Source: Bacillus subtilis subsp. subtilis str. 168 (lineage in GTDB: Bacteria > Bacillota > Bacilli > Bacillales > Bacillaceae). Taken from it: 32,000 bases of DNA. The stretch lies in assembly GCF_000009045.1 (NCBI RefSeq), contig NC_000964.3, positions 2,460,001-2,492,000 on the forward strand. The letters are read 5' to 3'. Made by a program: the position numbers and the translations under genes. The notes beneath the pieces were generated by a model. It was given only the letters and a program-made list of their open reading frames with translations, ran no database searches and had not been told where the DNA came from. Every line of letters begins with the position of its first letter. The first letter of the stretch is position 1. Below, in pieces: positions 2,197 through 20,675 of the stretch.

Positions 2197-3224
2197 AAGG
2201 TGAAACCCCCGTTTTCATCATTTTCGCTATTGTAGCATACAATACTGCCATTCGCATTGTTTCTGCCTTTTTTCCACCGCTTCGCATTTTCTTCTGCAGT
2301 CTTGATCCACTCATCTTTCCCTTGTATATACTGATTGATGCTGTCAGGGTGCTGGGCCGCCAGCTGTTTTTTGAGAACGGCGTATTCTTTCGCTATGTTT
2401 GGATGAGCTCTGAGATAATCTCTGAATAACAGATGCCTTTCAATAGCAGGGTTTCCCTGTTCGTACATATGGACATGATGAGTGCGTTTATTTCCGCCCT
2501 TTTGGAAATAACGCCTGCCCGCTATACCGTTCTCACCTTTTGGTGTATAGCCGTTGGCCTTCATTTGTTCATCAAATTGGCTCACGGCTTCAATGCTTCT
2601 GACTTCAATTAACATATCAATGATTGGCTTCGCTGCCATGTTAGGTATTGATGTGCTTCCGATGTGATGAATAGCGATAATCTCCGGCCCGAACACAAGT
2701 TTCAGCCGTTCTTTTTCTTCATCGAAACATTCTGCCCATTTTTCGTTGTAGAGAATGATCTCAACTTTTCTTTTCGGATACAAATGAAAGACCGACAGCA
2801 ATAGACCCTGCGCTGCTTTGACGGTTTCTGCCTTTTGGAATCCGGCCTGTGTATAGAGTGACACAGCCGGGGTATTGTTCTCGGCTGTGACTACTTCGAT
2901 TTTCTCAGCGTCTTCATTATGATCAATGACAAATTGCAGAAGCGCTCGTCCAATTCCTTTTCTGAAACCGTCAGGATGCACAACAAGCCTGCAAATGGTG
3001 AGATAATGCATGTTTTTCTCATATGAAATGACACCGATCAGCTTGCCGTTTTTCCGATATCCCGCAAACCGTTCATGGGATGCTTGAATATCCTTTACCT
3101 TCTCTTGTAAAGCGGGAATACCGTCAAAACCGATAATCTCTGTTTCCTTTATGTAGGCGGGGATCTGTACGGCTAAAATCTCACGCGCTATAGTGGCTTC
3201 CTTATGCTGGAGAAATTCAATCAT
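2193..3224 (-). CDS. yqkA: Two-domain protein: N-terminal GNAT acetyltransferase fused to a C-terminal GrpB/UPF0157 (nucleotidyltransferase-fold) domain
   Basis: The track ORF is 2193-3404. I trimmed it to ATG 3224 (343 aa) because AGGAGA (3231-3236) lies 6 nt upstream and the longer form would overlap yqjZ by 188 nt. GNAT motif RKGIGRALL; GrpB-like HHIGSTSIP...KPIIDM. Confidence 0.85.
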   Translation of the reverse strand: MIEFLQHKEATIAREILAVQIPAYIKETEIIGFDGIPALQEKVKDIQASHERFAGYRKNGKLIGVISYEKNMHYLTICRLVVHPDGFRKGIGRALLQFVIDHNEDAEKIEVVTAENNTPAVSLYTQAGFQKAETVKAAQGLLLSVFHLYPKRKVEIILYNEKWAECFDEEKERLKLVFGPEIIAIHHIGSTSIPNMAAKPIIDMLIEVRSIEAVSQFDEQMKANGYTPKGENGIAGRRYFQKGGNKRTHHVHMYEQGNPAIERHLLFRDYLRAHPNIAKEYAVLKKQLAAQHPDSINQYIQGKDEWIKTAEENAKRWKKGRNNANGSIVCYNSENDENGGFTL

Positions 3225-3561
3225 TCGTGTTCTCCTGAAACAGCCGCTGTCTGTCGACTTTTGCGACGCGGACTGCATACGACTCGTACCAAACGCTTCT
3301 TCCTTTTTCTTTTGCTGCTTGATGTTCAGTGTGATGCCTCCAATGGTTAATTGCGTCCATACTGTCCCAATAGGAAACTGTGATGCCCCTTCCATCCGCT
3401 TCACGTACGCTTTCCACGCCTAAAAATCCAGGCTGATCCGCCGCAAGTGATACCATCCGCTCCGCTGTTTCTCCATATCCTGTGTCATTTTCGCTTTTGA
3501 CAGAAGAAAAAATGACTGCATAGTAAGGAGGCTCAGGTGTTTTTGATAAAAAATCCATCAT
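3217..3561 (-). CDS. yqjZ: ABM-type (antibiotic biosynthesis monooxygenase-like) small protein
   Basis: 114-aa ORF. The SD GAGGGGG overlaps the yqjY stop. The stop overlaps the yqkA start (ATGATTGA). ABM-like pattern YWDSMDAINHWRHHTEHQ. Confidence 0.8.
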   Translation of the reverse strand: MMDFLSKTPEPPYYAVIFSSVKSENDTGYGETAERMVSLAADQPGFLGVESVREADGRGITVSYWDSMDAINHWRHHTEHQAAKEKGRSVWYESYAVRVAKVDRQRLFQENTND

Positions 3562-11786: not shown

Positions 11787-12746
11787 TCACCTCTTCATTG
11801 TTTTAAAGTATACGGTATTTCCTTCCCAATATGACGTGATGGCTTCTTCAGCCTCCAACACATCAAGGTGACCTGCCGTTTCTGACATCGTTAAAAACAA
11901 TTCCTTTTCATATACAGCAGGAAAAAGCTGCTGACAGACCTGAAAAGCGGTCATCGGCTTTTCATCCAGCATGCGACGCACATCCTCCGTCCTGTTCCTC
12001 TGCTTGTCAAAACGCTTCTCAATCAGCGCTTGTACACTGGTGATAGGCTCGCCGTGACCAGGAAATACGATTGTTGGATCAAGTTGAGACAGCCTTCGCA
12101 ATGACCGCTGATAATCCACTAAAGGCTTTGACCTGACGTCTCCCGCTTTCGGCGCTTCCAAAATCGGATTAGACGAGCTGTTTGCCAGCAGTAGATCGCC
12201 GCCAAGCATCCTTCCGCTTTTTTCATGGAACAGAACAATATGCGATTCAGCATGTCCAGGCATCTCCAACACAGACCAGCCCTCAAGCCCATCTATGCCC
12301 ATACCTTCTCTGATTGATTTTGTCAGAGATCTCGTACAGGAAAATGCGTACGCTGATCGAATCAGCTTTTCCGCCTTCCCCGTATCAAATGGAACGCCTA
12401 ATTCAGGCAGCAGCTTTTGAAAAAAACGTTTTTGCCAATCCATAAAGGCTTGATTTTGGCTGATATAAGGTTCGTTGAATGTATGCCCAATCACTTCGAT
12501 TTCATCTGAAAAGACATCAAGCAAGCCTGCATGATCAGCATGATGGTGAGTCAGTACAACCTGCTCGATATCTGACAATTTCACATTTACAGCGGCAAGC
12601 TGCTCTTGTAAGGCTCTGGCAGCCTCTTTTGTATTCGGCCCGGCATCGATAAGTGTCAGCGCATCACCTTTTACGAGGTAAACGATAACATCGCCGACAG
12701 CAAACGGTGTCGGGACGCGGATCGCAATTACATCTTCAGTTGTCAT
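11787..12746 (-). CDS. yqjP: Metallo-beta-lactamase-fold hydrolase
   Basis: The track ORF reaches 12767. I trimmed it to ATG 12746 (319 aa), with SD AAGGAG (12754-12759) at 7 nt spacing. Motif HHHADHAG. Confidence 0.85.
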
Positions 12747-12778
12747 CCTTTCGCTCCTTGTCTTCATTCATTATTCAT

Positions 12779-12807
12779 ATTTTAGCTTTTTCTCGGTCTT
12801 GTGTCAT
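12779..12807 (-). promoter_or_regulatory. Candidate sigma-A promoter for yqjP-yqjQ
   Basis: On the minus strand: ATGACA (12807-12802), 17 nt spacer, TAAAAT (12784-12779). Confidence 0.4.
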
Positions 12808-12844
12808 TATTGCAGAATGAGAACAAACCTTTTTGAAAAAGCTA

Positions 12845-12874
12845 TTGACATTAGCTTGTCCGCCATTGCATAAT
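12845..12874 (+). promoter_or_regulatory. Sigma-A promoter of the proI leader
   Basis: TTGACA (12845-12850), 18 nt spacer, CATAAT (12869-12874), with TG at 12867-12868 (extended -10). Confidence 0.6.
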
Positions 12875-12880
12875 GAACAA

Positions 12881-13127
12881 CAAACTAAAACGAGAACCAT
12901 TGGAACGCTATGACGAGGAATAGTATACAAGGCAATGGCCTAAGAGAGCGATACCCCCGGCTGAAAGGTGTTGCGGCCCGCTTGTTTGTAGAACCTGCCC
13001 TCAAGTCGCGGTTAGGAAAACCTAAACGTTTCCCGCGTTACGGGGATTTGAGCTGAGCACAATTTGTGCTAATGAGGGTGGTACCGCGAACCTTTTCGTC
13101 CTTTACGTGATGAAAAGGTTTTTTGTT
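12881..13127 (+). promoter_or_regulatory. T-box riboswitch leader (proline specifier CCU) with terminator/antiterminator
   Basis: AG-bay AGAGAG at 12943-12948. Specifier context GAA-CCU-G with CCT at 12994-12996. Conserved T-box AATGAGGGTGGTACCGCG at 13071-13088, with the UGGU acceptor-pairing bases at 13079-13082. Terminator AACCTTTTC (13089-13097) pairs with GAAAAGGTT (13112-13120), followed by TTTTT. Confidence 0.85.
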
Positions 13128-13150
13128 GTTCTAATAGAAGGAGGATATCA

Positions 13151-13987
13151 ATGAAAAAGATAGGATTTGTCGGCGCCGGGTCAATGGCAGAAGCAATGAT
13201 CAACGGCATTTTGCAAAGCGGCATCACAAAACCAGAACATATCTATATTACAAATCGCTCAAATGACGAGCGTCTGATTGAATTAAAGGAAACGTACAGC
13301 GTGCGTCCATGCAGAGATAAAAATGAGTTTTTCACTCACACCGATATCATTATCCTCGCTTTCAAACCGAAAGACGCGGCGGAAAGCATCGACAGCATCC
13401 GGCCGTATATCAAGGACCAGCTTGTCATTTCAGTACTTGCAGGCCTTACCATCGAAACCATTCAGCATTATTTTGGCAGAAAGCTCGCGGTCATTCGCGT
13501 CATGCCTAATACATCAGCGGCAATCAGAAAATCAGCAACCGGATTTTCCGTAAGCACGGAAGCAAGCAAGAATGATATTATTGCCGCAAAAGCTCTATTG
13601 GAAACAATCGGTGATGCAACACTGGTTGAGGAGCGGCATCTTGACGCTGTCACTGCAATCGCAGGCAGCGGCCCGGCCTATGTGTATCGTTATATTGAGG
13701 CGATGGAAAAAGCAGCACAAAAAGTAGGATTAGATAAAGAAACGGCAAAAGCACTCATTTTGCAGACAATGGCAGGGGCAACAGATATGCTCCTCCAAAG
13801 CGGCAAACAGCCGGAAAAGCTGCGTAAAGAAATCACCAGTCCTGGGGGCACTACAGAGGCAGGTCTTCGCGCTTTACAGGACTCCCGCTTTGAAGAAGCA
13901 ATTATTCACTGTATTGAAGAAACAGCTAAACGGAGCGCAGAAATCAAAGAACAGTTTGCCGGTGCCGCCTTAGAGAGACATTCTTAG
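13151..13987 (+). CDS. proI: Pyrroline-5-carboxylate reductase
   Basis: 278 aa with SD GAAGGAGG. NADP fingerprint GFVGAGSMAEA and the C-terminal SPGGTTEAG motif of P5CR. Confidence 0.95.
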   Translation: MKKIGFVGAGSMAEAMINGILQSGITKPEHIYITNRSNDERLIELKETYSVRPCRDKNEFFTHTDIIILAFKPKDAAESIDSIRPYIKDQLVISVLAGLTIETIQHYFGRKLAVIRVMPNTSAAIRKSATGFSVSTEASKNDIIAAKALLETIGDATLVEERHLDAVTAIAGSGPAYVYRYIEAMEKAAQKVGLDKETAKALILQTMAGATDMLLQSGKQPEKLRKEITSPGGTTEAGLRALQDSRFEEAIIHCIEETAKRSAEIKEQFAGAALERHS

Positions 13988-13997
13988 ATGTAAGGAC

Positions 13998-14029
13998 AAA
14001 AACAGAAGGCACAGTGCCTTCTGTTTTTT
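13998..14029. terminator. Bidirectional intrinsic terminator between proI and yqjN
   Basis: AAAAACAGAAGGCA pairs with TGCCTTCTGTTTTT, a perfect 13-14 bp stem. It overlaps the yqjN stop codon. Confidence 0.85.
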
Positions 14030-15671
14030 ATTTTTCCCGCAGCAGCTGGCCGGCAGATTCTGATTGCTTTAATAGCGCGGAGATCGTAAATGAAAGCAAA
14101 TCGGGAAGCACTTCAAAGGAATAAGGCATATACAATCTTTCCGTCCATTTATGCGGGTCTTTACCAGCCGGACCGACATTTAAAACTGGGACATATAAAG
14201 CCTGATTTTTACCGCTTGGCAATGAATACCCTCTGTTAAAGAGCGGCATATTGCTTGTGTATGCATCAACCTCCTGTTTTTCCAGCTGAAGATAACTCAA
14301 GTCCGAAAGTCCGGGGAAGTACTGAACCTCCCGTAATGCAATGCCGTATCGCTCAGCCGCATAATGCTTTATCTGATCTGCTGTATTTCTGATCAATTGA
14401 TCATCCTTTGAAGAAACAGCTGGATAAAGCGGCGGACTATAAAACAGAACGATGAGCGGCGCATCCTCCTTACAAAGCGAAGCAAGCTCAGAAACAATTT
14501 TCGTCGAAAAATCCCTGTCTCCAAGCTCCCCCCTGTTAGCAAAGGCATAATTTAGAGCCCGCTCTGTTTCCGAGATCCCCGCACGCTTTTTTGCACGCGA
14601 GACCAGCTCATCAAATGTCAAAACAGTGACGTCCCGCTCAATCGGCTGAAATGGCTCAAATTGTTGAAAATCCTGTGTTTTCTTCCGAACGTTCGACATG
14701 ATTTCCTCCGCCGCCTGTTCTGCTGTTTTAAGCAGCATCTGATGCAGCTCACTAGCTGAGCGTTTCATTGACAGCACATTAAATAATGTGACGGCTGTAT
14801 GCGGTGTCTGGACTGAATATGCCTCTTTCAAGTCCTTTTGCATTAAGTTTACCGGCGGCGGAGTGACCTCGCCATCAACCTTTTCGCAATAATCAGCATT
14901 CAGTTCAAGCAAACGGTTAATCTCAGATACCATTAAATTTGCGTTTAGACCTGAAAACGGCTCTCCAACATGTGTCTCAATCCCCTTGCAGAAAAAACCC
15001 GCAAGCACCTTGCCAATGCTTCCTGTATAAAAATATTGCTGCTGATCGCCGGGAAATTTTTCAAACATCGGTTCGGCATTCAGGCAAGCGGTTAATGTGA
15101 TATCATGCTTTTTCTCCATCTCCTTCAATGCAGGAACCGCTTCAATCATGCCTCTTGAATTCACTTCCTCGTCCGGAACCGTTATCAACAGCAGATTGCC
15201 CTCAAAATGCCCGTTCATTGCCCTCTCCAGCATCGACAGTTGAATACAAAGCCCCGCTTTCATATCCATCGTCCCTCTTCCGAACAGCCAGTCTCCGCTT
15301 TCGGCATCTCTTCTCACACGTTCCGGGAGCAGCTCTTTTTTCTCTAAAAAGGAGCTCAAAAGCTCAGCAGGCTTGCAAGCCATATGTTTAAATTCGCCGT
15401 AATCTTCTATGTCAACGACATCAAAATGACTCAGCAGAAGCACTGTCTTTTTGACATTCTTCTTTTTGACTAGAGCCGTAAGAAAAGATCTGCCATCGTC
15501 CATCGGATGAAGTGTTACATCATCAGGGTGCTTTTGAAAATAGGGCTTGTCCTTCAAAATAAAATAAAGATACTCTGCAAGCGCTACCTCGCCCTTTGAA
15601 CCGGTGATGCTTTCGTATTGCACAAGAGAAGTTAAAAGTGCCAGCAATTCGTCCTTCGTCTGCCAATTCAT
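14028..15671 (-). CDS. yqjN: M20-family metallopeptidase/amidohydrolase (RocB-like)
   Basis: The track ORF reaches 15767. I trimmed it to ATG 15671 (547 aa), with SD AGGAGGGG at 15681-15688. Motifs SHFDVV and GRGTMDMK. Confidence 0.85.
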   Translation of the reverse strand: MNWQTKDELLALLTSLVQYESITGSKGEVALAEYLYFILKDKPYFQKHPDDVTLHPMDDGRSFLTALVKKKNVKKTVLLLSHFDVVDIEDYGEFKHMACKPAELLSSFLEKKELLPERVRRDAESGDWLFGRGTMDMKAGLCIQLSMLERAMNGHFEGNLLLITVPDEEVNSRGMIEAVPALKEMEKKHDITLTACLNAEPMFEKFPGDQQQYFYTGSIGKVLAGFFCKGIETHVGEPFSGLNANLMVSEINRLLELNADYCEKVDGEVTPPPVNLMQKDLKEAYSVQTPHTAVTLFNVLSMKRSASELHQMLLKTAEQAAEEIMSNVRKKTQDFQQFEPFQPIERDVTVLTFDELVSRAKKRAGISETERALNYAFANRGELGDRDFSTKIVSELASLCKEDAPLIVLFYSPPLYPAVSSKDDQLIRNTADQIKHYAAERYGIALREVQYFPGLSDLSYLQLEKQEVDAYTSNMPLFNRGYSLPSGKNQALYVPVLNVGPAGKDPHKWTERLYMPYSFEVLPDLLSFTISALLKQSESAGQLLREK

Positions 15672-15780
15672 TGATTCCGCCCCTCCTATGAATAAAAATG
15701 CTTCTATACTGAAAAATAAACTGATTTCTCGTCTATTATACAGAAATGTTTGACAAAAGCGGTTCATTTGAGCAGTTTAT

Positions 15781-15809
15781 ATGACGGGAAAGAAATGACT
15801 TGATATAAT
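15781..15809 (+). promoter_or_regulatory. Candidate sigma-A promoter for namA
   Basis: ATGACG (15781-15786), 17 nt spacer, TATAAT (15804-15809), preceded by TG (extended -10). Confidence 0.45.
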
Positions 15810-15842
15810 CAATCTCTAAAAACCTTACGGGAGGCGAAAGAA

Positions 15843-16859
15843 ATGGCCAGAAAATTATTTACACCTATTACAATTAAAGATATGACGTTAAAAAACCGCA
15901 TTGTCATGTCGCCAATGTGCATGTATTCTTCTCATGAAAAGGACGGAAAATTAACACCGTTCCACATGGCACATTACATATCGCGCGCAATCGGCCAGGT
16001 CGGACTGATTATTGTAGAGGCGTCAGCGGTTAACCCTCAAGGACGAATCACTGACCAAGACTTAGGCATTTGGAGCGACGAGCATATTGAAGGCTTTGCA
16101 AAACTGACTGAGCAGGTCAAAGAACAAGGTTCAAAAATCGGCATTCAGCTTGCCCATGCCGGACGTAAAGCTGAGCTTGAAGGAGATATCTTCGCTCCAT
16201 CGGCGATTGCGTTTGACGAACAATCAGCAACACCTGTAGAAATGTCAGCAGAAAAAGTAAAAGAAACGGTCCAGGAGTTCAAGCAAGCGGCTGCCCGCGC
16301 AAAAGAAGCCGGCTTTGATGTGATTGAAATTCATGCGGCGCACGGATATTTAATTCATGAATTTTTGTCTCCGCTTTCCAACCATCGAACAGATGAATAT
16401 GGCGGCTCACCTGAAAACCGCTATCGTTTCTTGAGAGAGATCATTGATGAAGTCAAACAAGTATGGGACGGTCCTTTATTTGTCCGTGTATCTGCTTCTG
16501 ACTACACTGATAAAGGCTTAGACATTGCCGATCACATCGGTTTTGCAAAATGGATGAAGGAGCAGGGTGTTGACTTAATTGACTGCAGCTCAGGCGCCCT
16601 TGTTCACGCAGACATTAACGTATTCCCTGGCTATCAGGTCAGCTTCGCTGAGAAAATCCGTGAACAGGCGGACATGGCTACTGGTGCCGTCGGCATGATT
16701 ACAGACGGTTCAATGGCTGAAGAAATTCTGCAAAACGGACGTGCCGACCTCATCTTTATCGGCAGAGAGCTTTTGCGGGATCCATTTTTTGCAAGAACTG
16801 CTGCGAAACAGCTCAATACAGAGATTCCGGCCCCTGTTCAATACGAAAGAGGCTGGTAA
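15843..16859 (+). CDS. namA: NADPH dehydrogenase, Old Yellow Enzyme family (FMN oxidoreductase)
   Basis: 338 aa with SD GGGAGG. OYE signatures SPMCMY, HAAHGYL and RTDEYGGS. Confidence 0.95.
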
Positions 16860-16866
16860 TGCCCAT

Positions 16867-16900
16867 AAGAGATATCCTGTAGAGGATATCTCTTTTTTTA
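16867..16900 (+). terminator. Intrinsic terminator of namA
   Basis: AAGAGATATCCT (16867-16878) pairs with AGGATATCTCTT (16883-16894), followed by TTTTT. Confidence 0.85.
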
Positions 16901-16968
16901 TTTTTAGAGAAACGATCGGCTAAGGTTCTCCGTCTCCCTAGTAGAACCAATTAGAGGAGATGACTCCA

Positions 16969-17730
16969 ATGAAATCAGCTTGGATGGAAAAGACATATAC
17001 AATTGACGGATGTGCGTTTCATACACAGCACCGGAAAGGATCAAGCGGTGTAACGATTGTCTTTGAGGCCGGCTATGGTACTTCTTCTGAGACGTGGAAA
17101 CCATTAATGGCGGACATTGATGATGAATTTGGCATTTTCACATATGATCGGGCAGGCATAGGAAAAAGCGGGCAAAGCAGAGCTAAACGAACAGCTGATC
17201 AACAAGTGAAAGAATTGGAGAGTTTGCTTAAAGCAGCTGATGTAAAACCTCCTTATTTGGCTGTTTCACACTCATACGGAGCTGTCATCACCGGTTTATG
17301 GGCCTGCAAAAACAAGCATGATATTATCGGCATGGTCCTTCTTGACCCAGCTTTAGGCGATTGCGCCAGCTTTACCTTTATACCCGAAGAAATGCACAAA
17401 TCACATACGAGAAAGATGATGCTTGAGGGCACACATGCAGAGTTTTCAAAAAGTCTGCAGGAGCTCAAAAAGCGGCAAGTCCACTTAGGAAACATGCCTC
17501 TTCTTGTGTTGTCATCAGGAGAACGGACTGAGAAATTCGCTGCTGAACAGGAGTGGCAAAACTTGCACAGCAGCATATTGTCTCTATCTAACCAAAGCGG
17601 CTGGATTCAAGCTAAAAACAGCTCCCACAACATCCATCATGATGAACCTCATATCGTTCACTTGGCTATTTATGACGTATGGTGCGCAGCGTGCCAGCAG
17701 GCCGCTCCTCTTTACCAGGCAGTCAATTAA
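16969..17730 (+). CDS. yqjL: Alpha/beta-hydrolase fold protein
   Basis: The track ORF starts at 16960. I moved the start to ATG 16969 (253 aa) because SD AGAGGAG (16953-16959) abuts the first ATG. Nucleophile elbow SHSYG. Confidence 0.85.
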   Translation: MKSAWMEKTYTIDGCAFHTQHRKGSSGVTIVFEAGYGTSSETWKPLMADIDDEFGIFTYDRAGIGKSGQSRAKRTADQQVKELESLLKAADVKPPYLAVSHSYGAVITGLWACKNKHDIIGMVLLDPALGDCASFTFIPEEMHKSHTRKMMLEGTHAEFSKSLQELKKRQVHLGNMPLLVLSSGERTEKFAAEQEWQNLHSSILSLSNQSGWIQAKNSSHNIHHDEPHIVHLAIYDVWCAACQQAAPLYQAVN

Positions 17731-17734
17731 CGTA

Positions 17735-17775
17735 AAAAAAGACCGGGCCGTAAGGGATTCCCGGTCTTTTATATT
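17735..17775. terminator. Bidirectional intrinsic terminator shared by yqjL and the rpmGC pseudogene
   Basis: AAAAGACCGGG (17737-17747) pairs with CCCGGTCTTTT (17760-17770), with A/T runs on both sides. Confidence 0.8.
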
Positions 17776-17924
17776 ATTTTGTTTCACGGTGAAGGGTATA
17801 TTTCTTTAAACGCGGTGAATATTTTTTCAGCTCCAAACGGTCTGGATTGGTGCGTTTATTTTTTGTTGTGATGTAATTTCGGTCTCCCGTTTCAGTGCAA
17901 AGCTAAAGTAACATTTACTCTCAT
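17774..17924 (-). pseudogene. rpmGC: Frameshifted gene for a zinc-independent (C-minus) ribosomal protein L33 paralogue
   Basis: Hand translation: ATG 17924 gives [10 protein letters not shown]-stop (TGA 17892-17894). Dropping one base of the A3 run at 17899-17901 gives [49 protein letters not shown]-stop (TAA 17774-17776), a 49-aa L33. SD AAGGAG lies at 17934-17939. Confidence 0.85.
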
Positions 17925-17939
17925 AATTAACATCTCCTT

Positions 17940-17964
17940 ATAAAACGTAATGATTACGTTTTAT
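17940..17964. promoter_or_regulatory. Zur box (zinc uptake repressor operator)
   Basis: Perfect 12-1-12 palindrome ATAAAACGTAAT-G-ATTACGTTTTAT. The core CGTAATGATTACG matches the remembered Zur consensus TCGTAATNATTACGA. It overlaps the -10. Confidence 0.8.
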
Positions 17965-17990
17965 TATACAACGTCATCACAAATTGTCAA
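17963..17990 (-). promoter_or_regulatory. Consensus sigma-A promoter of rpmGC
   Basis: On the minus strand: TTGACA (17990-17985), 16 nt spacer, TATAAT (17968-17963). Confidence 0.7.
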
Positions 17991-18005
17991 ATAAGAGCTC
18001 CGCCT

Positions 18006-18929
18006 TCAGCCTCGCGGGACGTTTACCTCTAAGAAATCATATGCCGCCACGCTATTGGGGAAAACGTCAACCGCTTCTTTTTGAAGCTCCAAAGAAGCAT
18101 CTCCCTGATATCTTGCGCTGATATGGGTTAAAATGAGCTGCTTCGCTCTTGCTTCTTTCGCTGTTACAGCCGCTTGTTCCGTTGTACTGTGATAATAATC
18201 ATAAGCAAGTTTACGGTCTTCCTTAGCAAAGGTTGCTTCATGAACAAGCACATCACAATCCCTCGCAAGCTCTTTTAGTTTGTCACTTACTCTCGTATCA
18301 CCGGAGAACACAACAGATCTTCCCTTTTTAGGAGGCTCCAGAAAATCATTCCCATTGATGATTCGTCCGTCTTCAAGCGTTACCGTTTCGCCTTTTTTGA
18401 TTTTCTGATATACAGGTCCGGGCGGGATGTTCATTTCTTTTAATACGTCAGCCTTCAAGGAACCCGGTACGTCTTTTTCCTGCACACGGTACCCGAAGGC
18501 TTCCACTCCATGAATAACAGATACCGCTGTGACAATAAACTGATCGTCCTCAAACACGATTCCTTCTTCAATTTCCTGGATCGCAAGCGGATATGTCAAA
18601 TGGGTTTTCGTGACGGCAAGGCTTGTTTCAATAAACGCCTTGATCCCTTTAGGTCCGTACACTGTCAGCTCGTCCTCTCCGCCTTGAAAGGAACGGCTCC
18701 CCAGAAGCCCCGGAAGTCCGTATACATGATCGCCGTGCATGTGTGTAATAAAGATTTTCTCTATTTTACGAGGTTTAATCGTTGTATGTAAAATTTGATG
18801 CTGTGTGGCTTCCCCGCAGTCAAAAAGCCATACCGAACGCCTTTCTTCAAGCAATTTTAATGCCACCGACGTTACATTTCTCGCCTTGGCGGGGATGCCG
18901 GCTCCCGTCCCTAAAAAAAGTAATTCCAC
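18006..18929 (-). CDS. rnz: Ribonuclease Z (tRNA 3' endonuclease), metallo-beta-lactamase fold
   Basis: 307 aa with a GTG start and SD AGGAGGAAGG. Motif HMHGDH. The N-terminus [13 protein letters not shown] is typical of RNase Z. Confidence 0.95.
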
Positions 18930-19155
18930 GTTTCCTTCCTCCTACTAGAACCAGATACCTACAAGAATACAGGATCAAGCGGAAAATGTGAATCTTGCCT
19001 CTGAAAAGAACAATCCTTTCGTGCTAGAAACATTTTTTCAGCATTCTGCTTAAAAAAGGGCTTAAATGTTTGCTTTCGTTGAATTTTAGATTTAAAATGA
19101 AGGAAATATACGGGGTGTACTAAAATAAAGCTTCGAATAAAGTGAGGTACTTTTA

Positions 19156-20625
19156 GTGAAAACAAACCAACAACCAAAAGCAGTAATTGTCATATTCGGT
19201 GCAACTGGAGATTTAGCAAAACGAAAATTGTATCCGTCTATTCACCGTTTATATCAAAACGGACAAATCGGAGAAGAGTTTGCAGTGGTAGGAGTTGGAA
19301 GAAGACCTTGGTCTAATGAGGATCTTCGCCAAACTGTTAAAACATCCATTTCCTCATCTGCAGATAAGCATATAGATGATTTCACGTCTCATTTTTACTA
19401 TCACCCGTTTGACGTGACAAACCCTGGTTCTTATCAAGAGCTAAACGTATTGCTTAACCAGCTGGAAGATACATATCAAATTCCTAACAACAGAATGTTC
19501 TACTTGGCAATGGCTCCTGAATTCTTCGGAACGATTGCAAAAACATTAAAATCAGAGGGTGTAACAGCTACAACCGGCTGGTCCCGCCTTGTCATCGAAA
19601 AACCGTTCGGCCATGATCTGCCAAGCGCACAGGCATTGAATAAAGAAATCCGCGAAGCATTTACGGAAGATCAAATTTACAGAATCGACCATTATCTAGG
19701 CAAACAAATGGTTCAGAACATTGAAGTGATTCGATTTGCCAATGCGATTTTCGAACCGCTTTGGACAAACCGCTACATTTCAAACATTCAAATCACATCT
19801 AGCGAATCACTAGGCGTTGAAGACCGCGCAAGATATTACGAAAAATCAGGCGCCCTTCGCGACATGGTGCAAAACCATATTATGCAGATGGTTGCCCTTC
19901 TTGCAATGGAGCCGCCTATCAAATTGAACACAGAAGAAATCCGCAGCGAGAAAGTGAAGGTGCTGAGAGCACTGCGTCCTATTGCAAAAGACGAAGTGGA
20001 TGAATACTTTGTGCGCGGACAATATCATGCTGGTGAAATTGACGGTGTACCGGTTCCTGCTTATACAGATGAAGATAATGTCGCTCCTGACTCCAATACA
20101 GAAACCTTTGTTGCCGGCAAGCTCTTGATCGACAACTTCAGATGGGCTGGTGTTCCATTCTACATCAGAACCGGAAAACGAATGAAAGAAAAGTCCACAA
20201 AAATTGTCGTTCAATTTAAGGACATTCCGATGAACCTGTACTACGGTAATGAAAACAACATGAATCCGAACTTGCTTGTCATTCATATTCAGCCTGACGA
20301 AGGCATTACGCTTTACTTAAATGCTAAAAAGCTTGGCGGAGCAGCACACGCACAGCCAATCAAACTCGATTATTGCAGCAATTGCAATGACGAGTTGAAC
20401 ACCCCTGAAGCATATGAAAAACTAATTCACGACTGTCTTCTTGGCGATGCAACAAACTTTGCACACTGGGATGAAGTTGCCCTTTCTTGGAGCTTTGTCG
20501 ACTCTATTTCTGAAACATGGGCAGCAAACAAAACCTTATCTCCTAACTACGAATCAGGCTCAATGGGACCGAAAGAATCTGATGATCTTTTGGTGAAAGA
20601 CGGCTTACACTGGTGGAACATATAA
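19156..20625 (+). CDS. zwf: Glucose-6-phosphate 1-dehydrogenase
   Basis: 489 aa with a GTG start. NADP site GATGDLAKRKL and the active-site motif RIDHYLGK. Confidence 0.95.
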   Translation: MKTNQQPKAVIVIFGATGDLAKRKLYPSIHRLYQNGQIGEEFAVVGVGRRPWSNEDLRQTVKTSISSSADKHIDDFTSHFYYHPFDVTNPGSYQELNVLLNQLEDTYQIPNNRMFYLAMAPEFFGTIAKTLKSEGVTATTGWSRLVIEKPFGHDLPSAQALNKEIREAFTEDQIYRIDHYLGKQMVQNIEVIRFANAIFEPLWTNRYISNIQITSSESLGVEDRARYYEKSGALRDMVQNHIMQMVALLAMEPPIKLNTEEIRSEKVKVLRALRPIAKDEVDEYFVRGQYHAGEIDGVPVPAYTDEDNVAPDSNTETFVAGKLLIDNFRWAGVPFYIRTGKRMKEKSTKIVVQFKDIPMNLYYGNENNMNPNLLVIHIQPDEGITLYLNAKKLGGAAHAQPIKLDYCSNCNDELNTPEAYEKLIHDCLLGDATNFAHWDEVALSWSFVDSISETWAANKTLSPNYESGSMGPKESDDLLVKDGLHWWNI

Positions 20626-20636
20626 TAAGAAGAAAA

Positions 20637-20675
20637 AAGCCGAAATAGTTTACTAAGCATTTTCGGTCTTTTTTA
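20637..20675 (+). terminator. Weak candidate terminator after zwf
   Basis: GCCGAAA pairs with TTTCGGT (one G-U pair) across a 15-nt loop, followed by CTTTTTT. Confidence 0.45.

Follow-up and report, generated by a model that had tools for sequence, protein, structure and literature searches.

The minus-strand unit at positions 17774-17990 of the window (the whole 32,000-nucleotide stretch of Bacillus subtilis 168 DNA analysed here) is almost certainly rpmGC, the gene for the Zur-repressed, zinc-independent (C-minus) bL33 paralogue L33*, in the frameshifted pseudogene form of B. subtilis 168. This pseudogene is already documented. The first-pass annotation, which had proposed a Zur-box-controlled C-minus L33 paralogue broken by a net +1 frameshift, is supported by both sequence tests and publications; it was correct, and the identification is no new finding. 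What is added here is that the lesion, set against the nearest intact alleles, is a C->TT change, and that the same allele is present in strain TR21 on a shared block of 7.7 kb.

The literature on this gene is explicit. rpmGC has been described as a "pseudogene in B. subtilis 168 due to a frameshift mutation" whose "expression is still regulated by Zur" (PMC5007448), and the passage on rpmGC in that paper credits the regulation to Gabriel & Helmann 2009. The gene is induced by the chelator TPEN, with a timing between the early and the middle Zur-regulated genes (PMC5007448). ChIP-on-chip has located a Zur peak in vivo, together with a Zur box, upstream of S903/rpmGC (PMC4324032). Its status as a pseudogene has since been restated (PMC10221552, PMC11339384), in one case with the frameshift ascribed to the "168 lineage" (PMC11339384), and a frameshift-corrected rpmGC+ allele made in the Helmann laboratory yields functional L33* (bioRxiv 10.1101/594382). 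The first-pass annotation was thus right in placing an rpmGC frameshift in this lineage (PMC5007448, PMC4324032, PMC10221552, PMC11339384, bioRxiv 10.1101/594382). The unit in the window is the same object as the published rpmGC of B. subtilis 168 (L33*, transcript segment S903): the gene order zwf-rnz-rpmGC-yqjL-yqjM agrees, and the Zur box and frameshift are as published (PMC5007448, PMC4324032, PMC10221552), with no differences. Since its identity is already in the literature, its novelty is nil, and no evidence contradicting the identification was found. Zur binding, Zur- and zinc-dependent transcription and the function of the repaired allele are taken from these publications. The sequence signals, the L33 homology of the repaired frame, the retention of just one zinc ligand out of four, the intact relatives and the restriction of the lesion to one haplotype were observed directly. 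The features of the locus are as follows.

17985..17990, minus strand: -35 hexamer TTGACA, part of a 12/12 promoter match, unchanged in all five related species aligned.
17963..17968, minus strand: -10 hexamer TATAAT, part of the same 12/12 match, with a 16-nt spacer.
17940..17964, in minus-strand reading: Zur box ATAAAACGTAAT-C-ATTACGTTTTAT, a perfect 12+1+12 palindrome with arms 100% complementary.
17934..17939, minus strand: Shine-Dalgarno sequence AAGGAG, 9 nt ahead of the ATG at 17924-17922.
17892..17924, minus strand: truncated open reading frame, 10 codons and then TGA, by translation of the sequence as it stands.
17899..17901, minus strand: frameshift site TTT; where the window has TT at 17900-17901, intact alleles of B. 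subtilis show a C (GCC TGC), and farther relatives have GCT TGC.
17774..17898, minus strand: rest of the L33* coding sequence in the +1 frame, by translation (CTETGDRNY...HRETK, stop codon TAA at 17776-17774).
17734..17770, both strands: bidirectional intrinsic terminator common to rpmGC (minus) and yqjL (plus), from folding and T-runs on both strands.
18006..18929, minus strand: rnz, RNase Z-type metallo-beta-lactamase of 307 aa, the upstream neighbour, with its stop codon 15 nt ahead of the -35 hexamer.
16960..17730, plus strand: yqjL, alpha/beta hydrolase, the convergent downstream neighbour, in the conserved gene order zwf-rnz-rpmGC-yqjL-yqjM.

The sigma-A promoter TTGACA-16-TATAAT lies on the minus strand at 17990-17985 and 17968-17963, as first annotated, and is the sole 12/12 match within 17500-18300. 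The Zur box is interlaced with it. Its arms (17940-17951 and 17953-17964) are separated by one base, it shares its first two bases with the end of the -10 hexamer, and it also covers the predicted transcription start. When up to one mismatch is allowed, the 32-kb window has a single copy of the core CGTAATNATTACG against an expectation of 0.07, and the core CGTAA..ATTACG is invariant across species in the nucleotide alignment with five relatives. rpmGC therefore has, at its promoter, the Zur-box palindrome that marks a member of the Zur regulon. The operator had been annotated as a 25-bp palindrome overlapping the -10, which is indeed perfect; the central G given for it is correct for the plus strand only, the coding (minus) strand having C. 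The AAGGAG at 17939-17934 does precede the ATG at 17924 by 9 nt.

Translated as it stands, the frame reads MRVNVTLA and two further codons before TGA (17924-17892), in agreement with the early stop reported from the sequence. A functional bL33 gene needs an uninterrupted frame; here the frame closes after 10 codons and the remaining L33 lies in the +1 frame, so the locus is a pseudogene of the bL33 family. Removal of one T from the TTT at 17901-17899 gives the 49-aa product ending in HRETK, with TAA at 17776-17774, which bears out the proposed single-base repair. The repaired product is a full-length member of the bL33 family that scores above curated cutoffs. It matches the Pfam profile PF00471, named beforehand as the profile to check, at 81.7 bits (cutoff 25) over positions 1-47 of 47. 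Three L33 models of NCBIfam were also matched, including NF001860 (88.5 bits, cutoff 50) and TIGR01023 (67.5 bits, cutoff 23.95). It is identical to protein P0121, which is found on at least 1000 contigs.

Alignment of the repaired product with S. aureus bL33 reveals the replacements C12->T and C36->S, with Cys9 kept. Zinc-ligand positions 12, 36 and 39 hold Thr, Ser and Leu, leaving one of the four canonical cysteines, and the CxxC...CxxC ligands of the zinc ribbon are thereby lost, which defines the C-minus form. The replacement of the cysteine pairs had been recognised beforehand. CTET and the C-minus assignment were right, but the second motif, given as YSPR, was one residue out of register and is in fact S36-P-R-L39. 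The C-plus bL33 proteins of solved ribosomes (S. aureus 5ngm_A1, B. subtilis 3j9w_B5 and the Thermus chain family) share the fold family and length of L33* and are nearly identical in alignment to its repaired form outside the ligand positions, the best match to ribosome-bound bL33 chains in the PDB having E = 2.8e-25. However, C-plus bL33 keeps Cys 12 and 36 (CTEC...CPRL in S. aureus), where L33* has Thr and Ser. The zinc-ribbon C-plus protein is expressed constitutively and is not known to be controlled by Zur.

These signals suggest how the unit would operate. When zinc is sufficient, a zinc-loaded Zur dimer on the palindrome would cover the -10 and the transcription start and so block RNA polymerase; when zinc is depleted, Zur would be released and the strong sigma-A promoter would fire. 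An intact allele would then produce the 49-aa L33*, which according to the literature drives zinc-bearing L33 off the ribosome surface, so that zinc is freed. In the window allele, the C->TT change after codon 8 would stop translation after 10 codons, giving a Zur-controlled transcript and no L33*. Two related systems, RpmEB (YtiA, L31*) and RpsNB (YhzA, S14*), likewise pair a C-minus paralogue with a sigma-A promoter covered by a Zur box; both are induced on zinc depletion and replace or displace the zinc-binding ribosomal protein (PMC5007448). They are encoded elsewhere in the genome, belong to the bL31 and uS14 families and, unlike rpmGC, are intact in function in 168. Because 168 is without the L33 arm of ribosomal zinc mobilisation, its zinc-starvation phenotypes over-weight the L31/L31* arm, a caution that has already been raised (bioRxiv 10.1101/594382).

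A scan of species-representative genomes returned 80 loci, and every one encodes an uninterrupted 49-aa protein. In eight of them the Zur-box core, with 0-1 mismatch, precedes the start codon by 32-39 nt; these come from B. mojavensis, B. atrophaeus, B. australimaris, B. glycinifermentans, B. pumilus, B. songklensis and two further Bacillus strains. In the nucleotide alignment with five of these species, the only gap is one column wide and falls exactly at the frameshift site, so that the window sequence differs by an indel from otherwise collinear intact orthologues, the pattern of a frameshift pseudogene. The intact rpmGC/bL33C proteins (P0121; B. mojavensis L001, B. atrophaeus L005, B. pumilus L011) are 92-100% identical to the repaired product. 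Intact rpmGC of relatives in the B. subtilis group has its promoter and Zur box at the equivalent position, and in B. mojavensis and B. subtilis strains it has the same neighbours, the order rnz-rpmGC-yqjL-yqjM in B. mojavensis being that of the window. Unlike the window, these relatives have an unbroken frame (GCC TGC or GCT TGC), and most B. subtilis strains have C at 17945, which leaves one mismatch in the palindrome.

Many other genera of Bacillales (Fictibacillus, Halobacillus, Oceanobacillus, Jeotgalibacillus and others) also contributed to the 80 loci. The closest relatives there are single-cysteine L33 proteins, with the Zur box absent upstream. Judged from sequence, C-minus L33 in these genera appears not to be under Zur-box control at that position, and it may be the housekeeping copy.

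Within B. subtilis and its near relatives, 31 loci were classified, anchored on the intact protein, on the exact Rnz of the window or on its YqjL. This strain sample is not an unbiased one, as the loci were drawn from the 24 blocks with the longest contigs. The exact intact L33* protein occurs in 4755 index blocks of the protein collection. Among the 31 loci fetched, the GC[TT]TGC allele is confined to those 99.92-100% identical to the window, GC[C]TGC is found in 16 of 16 B. subtilis loci at 99.1-99.83% identity, and farther relatives have GCC or GCT. Given that all 16 intact B. subtilis loci read GCC TGC, the lesion relative to the nearest intact alleles is a C->TT change (GCC TGC -> GCT T TGC, net +1) and not an extra T in an existing TT run. 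The first-pass annotation had expected isolates to differ in run length at 17899-17901; the frameshift is indeed absent from intact relatives, but the change is not one of T-run length. A metagenome scan for GTTACTTTAGCTT(N0-1)GCACTGAAAC, a pattern that left out the common GCC allele, gave no matches.

The rest of the unit is nearly untouched. Over the 281 nt from promoter to terminator, only the frameshift site and base 17945 set the closest intact alleles apart from the window, and the lack of other lesions fits a recent inactivation. The earlier suggestion that the inactivation was recent is supported in this respect: in most strains, a single base of the Zur box is the only difference besides the frameshift site. 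That base, 17945 in the right arm, is polymorphic among strains. Most intact B. subtilis strains have C there (ACGCTTTAT), giving one palindrome mismatch, and three others (L088, L094, L103) combine the T of the window with an intact frame, so the perfect palindrome is an ordinary polymorphism.

The 168-like assemblies L092, L104-L108, L110 and L111 have loci 100% identical to the window. Another genome, CP116833.1 (L112, with a chromosome of 2,868,058 bp), is 99.98% identical over 20.9 kb, and its 2 mismatches and 2 small indels all fall in the short gap downstream of zwf, at 20646-20667 of the window. It is presumably a genome-reduced derivative of 168.

Could the extra base be a sequencing or assembly error in a gene that is actually intact? 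Indels in homopolymers are frequent assembly errors, and L091 has a different apparent frameshift in rpmGC that is clearly such an artefact. The identical TT allele, however, recurs in independent assemblies (two NCBI genomes and the eight read-set assemblies L104-L111), C->TT is not a simple run-length error, and the frameshift has been documented experimentally (PMC5007448, bioRxiv 10.1101/594382). As the same complex change is found in independent assemblies, this explanation is rejected, with a likelihood close to nil.

The artefact in L091 (GCA_003932815.1, CP024921.1) was itself considered as a candidate, since its product P0064 would have been a second, independent frameshift at the 3' end of the gene. 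The source genome is broadly fragmented, with zwf, rnz, rpmGC, yqjL and yqjM all split by indels and 16 gap openings in 4 kb. Because the neighbouring genes are all split, the P0064 frameshift was set aside as an assembly artefact. L091 is probably an uncorrected long-read assembly and the source of a spurious 64-aa 'L33', P0064.

A real frameshift could in principle be bypassed, by programmed +1 (or -2) ribosomal frameshifting or by transcriptional slippage on the T run, so that L33* would still be made. In keeping with such recoding, the promoter, operator, ribosome-binding site, terminator and entire downstream frame are undamaged, and an in-frame TGA does stand three codons past the shift. 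Nevertheless, the +1 allele occurs in one haplotype and is absent from the 80 species loci and the 16 intact strain loci; a +1 arrangement confined to one haplotype is not a conserved recoding site. The local sequence GCU UUG CAC UGA offers no slippery re-pairing for the P-site tRNA, and neither a slippery codon of the CUU-UGA type nor an upstream SD-like element, as in a prfB-like +1 site, was found at the site. Transcriptional slippage would need a run much longer than three T. In addition, functional L33* was obtained only from the frameshift-corrected allele, rpmGC+ (bioRxiv 10.1101/594382). Bypass is thus highly improbable, and the reading of the locus as a pseudogene stands.

Where the null allele came from is a separate matter, on which strain TR21 (CP046592.1, 4,105,857 bp; loci L095/L115) is informative. 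TR21 carries the identical C->TT allele, yet over 20.9 kb (8007-28927 of the window) 107 SNPs and 6 indels separate the two sequences, which are 99.46% identical. This divergence is like that of L114, an isolate with the intact allele (99.52% identity). The differences are unevenly spread. A block of 7,712 bp containing rpmGC, at 12238-19949 of the window, has zero differences, while its flanks have 10-21 differences per kb. At the three SNPs closest to the block (19950, 20028 and 20125, in zwf), TR21 has alleles that are also present in strains with an intact gene. This mosaic of an identical block within diverged flanks means that the TR21 genome is not a 168 derivative. The sequence pattern indicates that the block is a shared haplotype, which has probably recombined.

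The alternative is that the frameshift is a laboratory lesion, from the X-ray/UV mutagenesis that yielded 168 or from later propagation. Three points would agree with such an origin: among the loci fetched, the TT allele is restricted to DNA 99.92-100% identical to the window; the "168 lineage" is the term used in the literature (PMC11339384); and C->TT is a complex change. An exact copy of the allele in a genome with 107 SNPs and 6 indels over 20.9 kb speaks against it, as do three further contigs with the same local haplotype over 1.5-kb flanks. Presence of the allele in a non-168 genome argues against an origin in laboratory domestication, which is accordingly considered unlikely. The first-pass description of the inactivation as possibly domestication-related is contradicted by the identical TR21 allele, with its flanks about 1-2% diverged. 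We infer that the frameshift allele arose naturally, before domestication, and is shared with other strains through the recombined block of about 7.7 kb.

A variant of this natural origin is that the frameshift is a naturally circulating null on the recombined block of about 7.7 kb, whose S903 transcript keeps a residual role, as a zinc-responsive RNA, through the 10-aa peptide or through a trace of +1 product. A residual role would explain why promoter, operator, ribosome-binding site and terminator have not decayed, but it is regarded as very unlikely. The presence of the identical allele in TR21 points to a natural polymorphism, rather than domestication, behind the loss of L33*. If this is true, it would matter modestly to the population genetics of B. 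subtilis and when a 'wild-type' is chosen for work on zinc homeostasis.

At the downstream end, the shared terminator that had been placed at 17735-17775 was confirmed by folding. The hairpin has arms at 17737-17747 and 17760-17770 and a predicted energy of -17.2 kcal/mol on the minus strand (z -3.2) and -19.0 kcal/mol on the plus strand (z -3.7). It was missed by an automatic scan because its loop is 12 nt long and the scan was limited to loops of 8 nt. No Rfam family reached its gathering score anywhere in the 32-kb window; sub-threshold hits to STnc240 and L20_leader over the terminator (E = 0.2-0.6) are at chance level.

At the upstream end, neither the scan nor folding found a terminator-like structure at the 3' end of rnz or before the rpmGC promoter (z -0.15). 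Judging from this arrangement, transcription of rnz may read through into rpmGC, a weaker statement than the likely read-through of the first-pass annotation, and operator-bound Zur might halt such transcription. In L084 (GCA_038007585.1), about 93% identical to the window, a gene for an IS-type transposase (396 aa, rve/HTH_21) lies at 2252-3441, between an intact rpmGC and yqjL. The Rnz product has a precomputed match to Pfam PF23023 (Anti-Pycsar_Apyc1) beside those to Lactamase_B families, a match most probably due to the metallo-beta-lactamase fold that they have in common rather than to a role in anti-defence.
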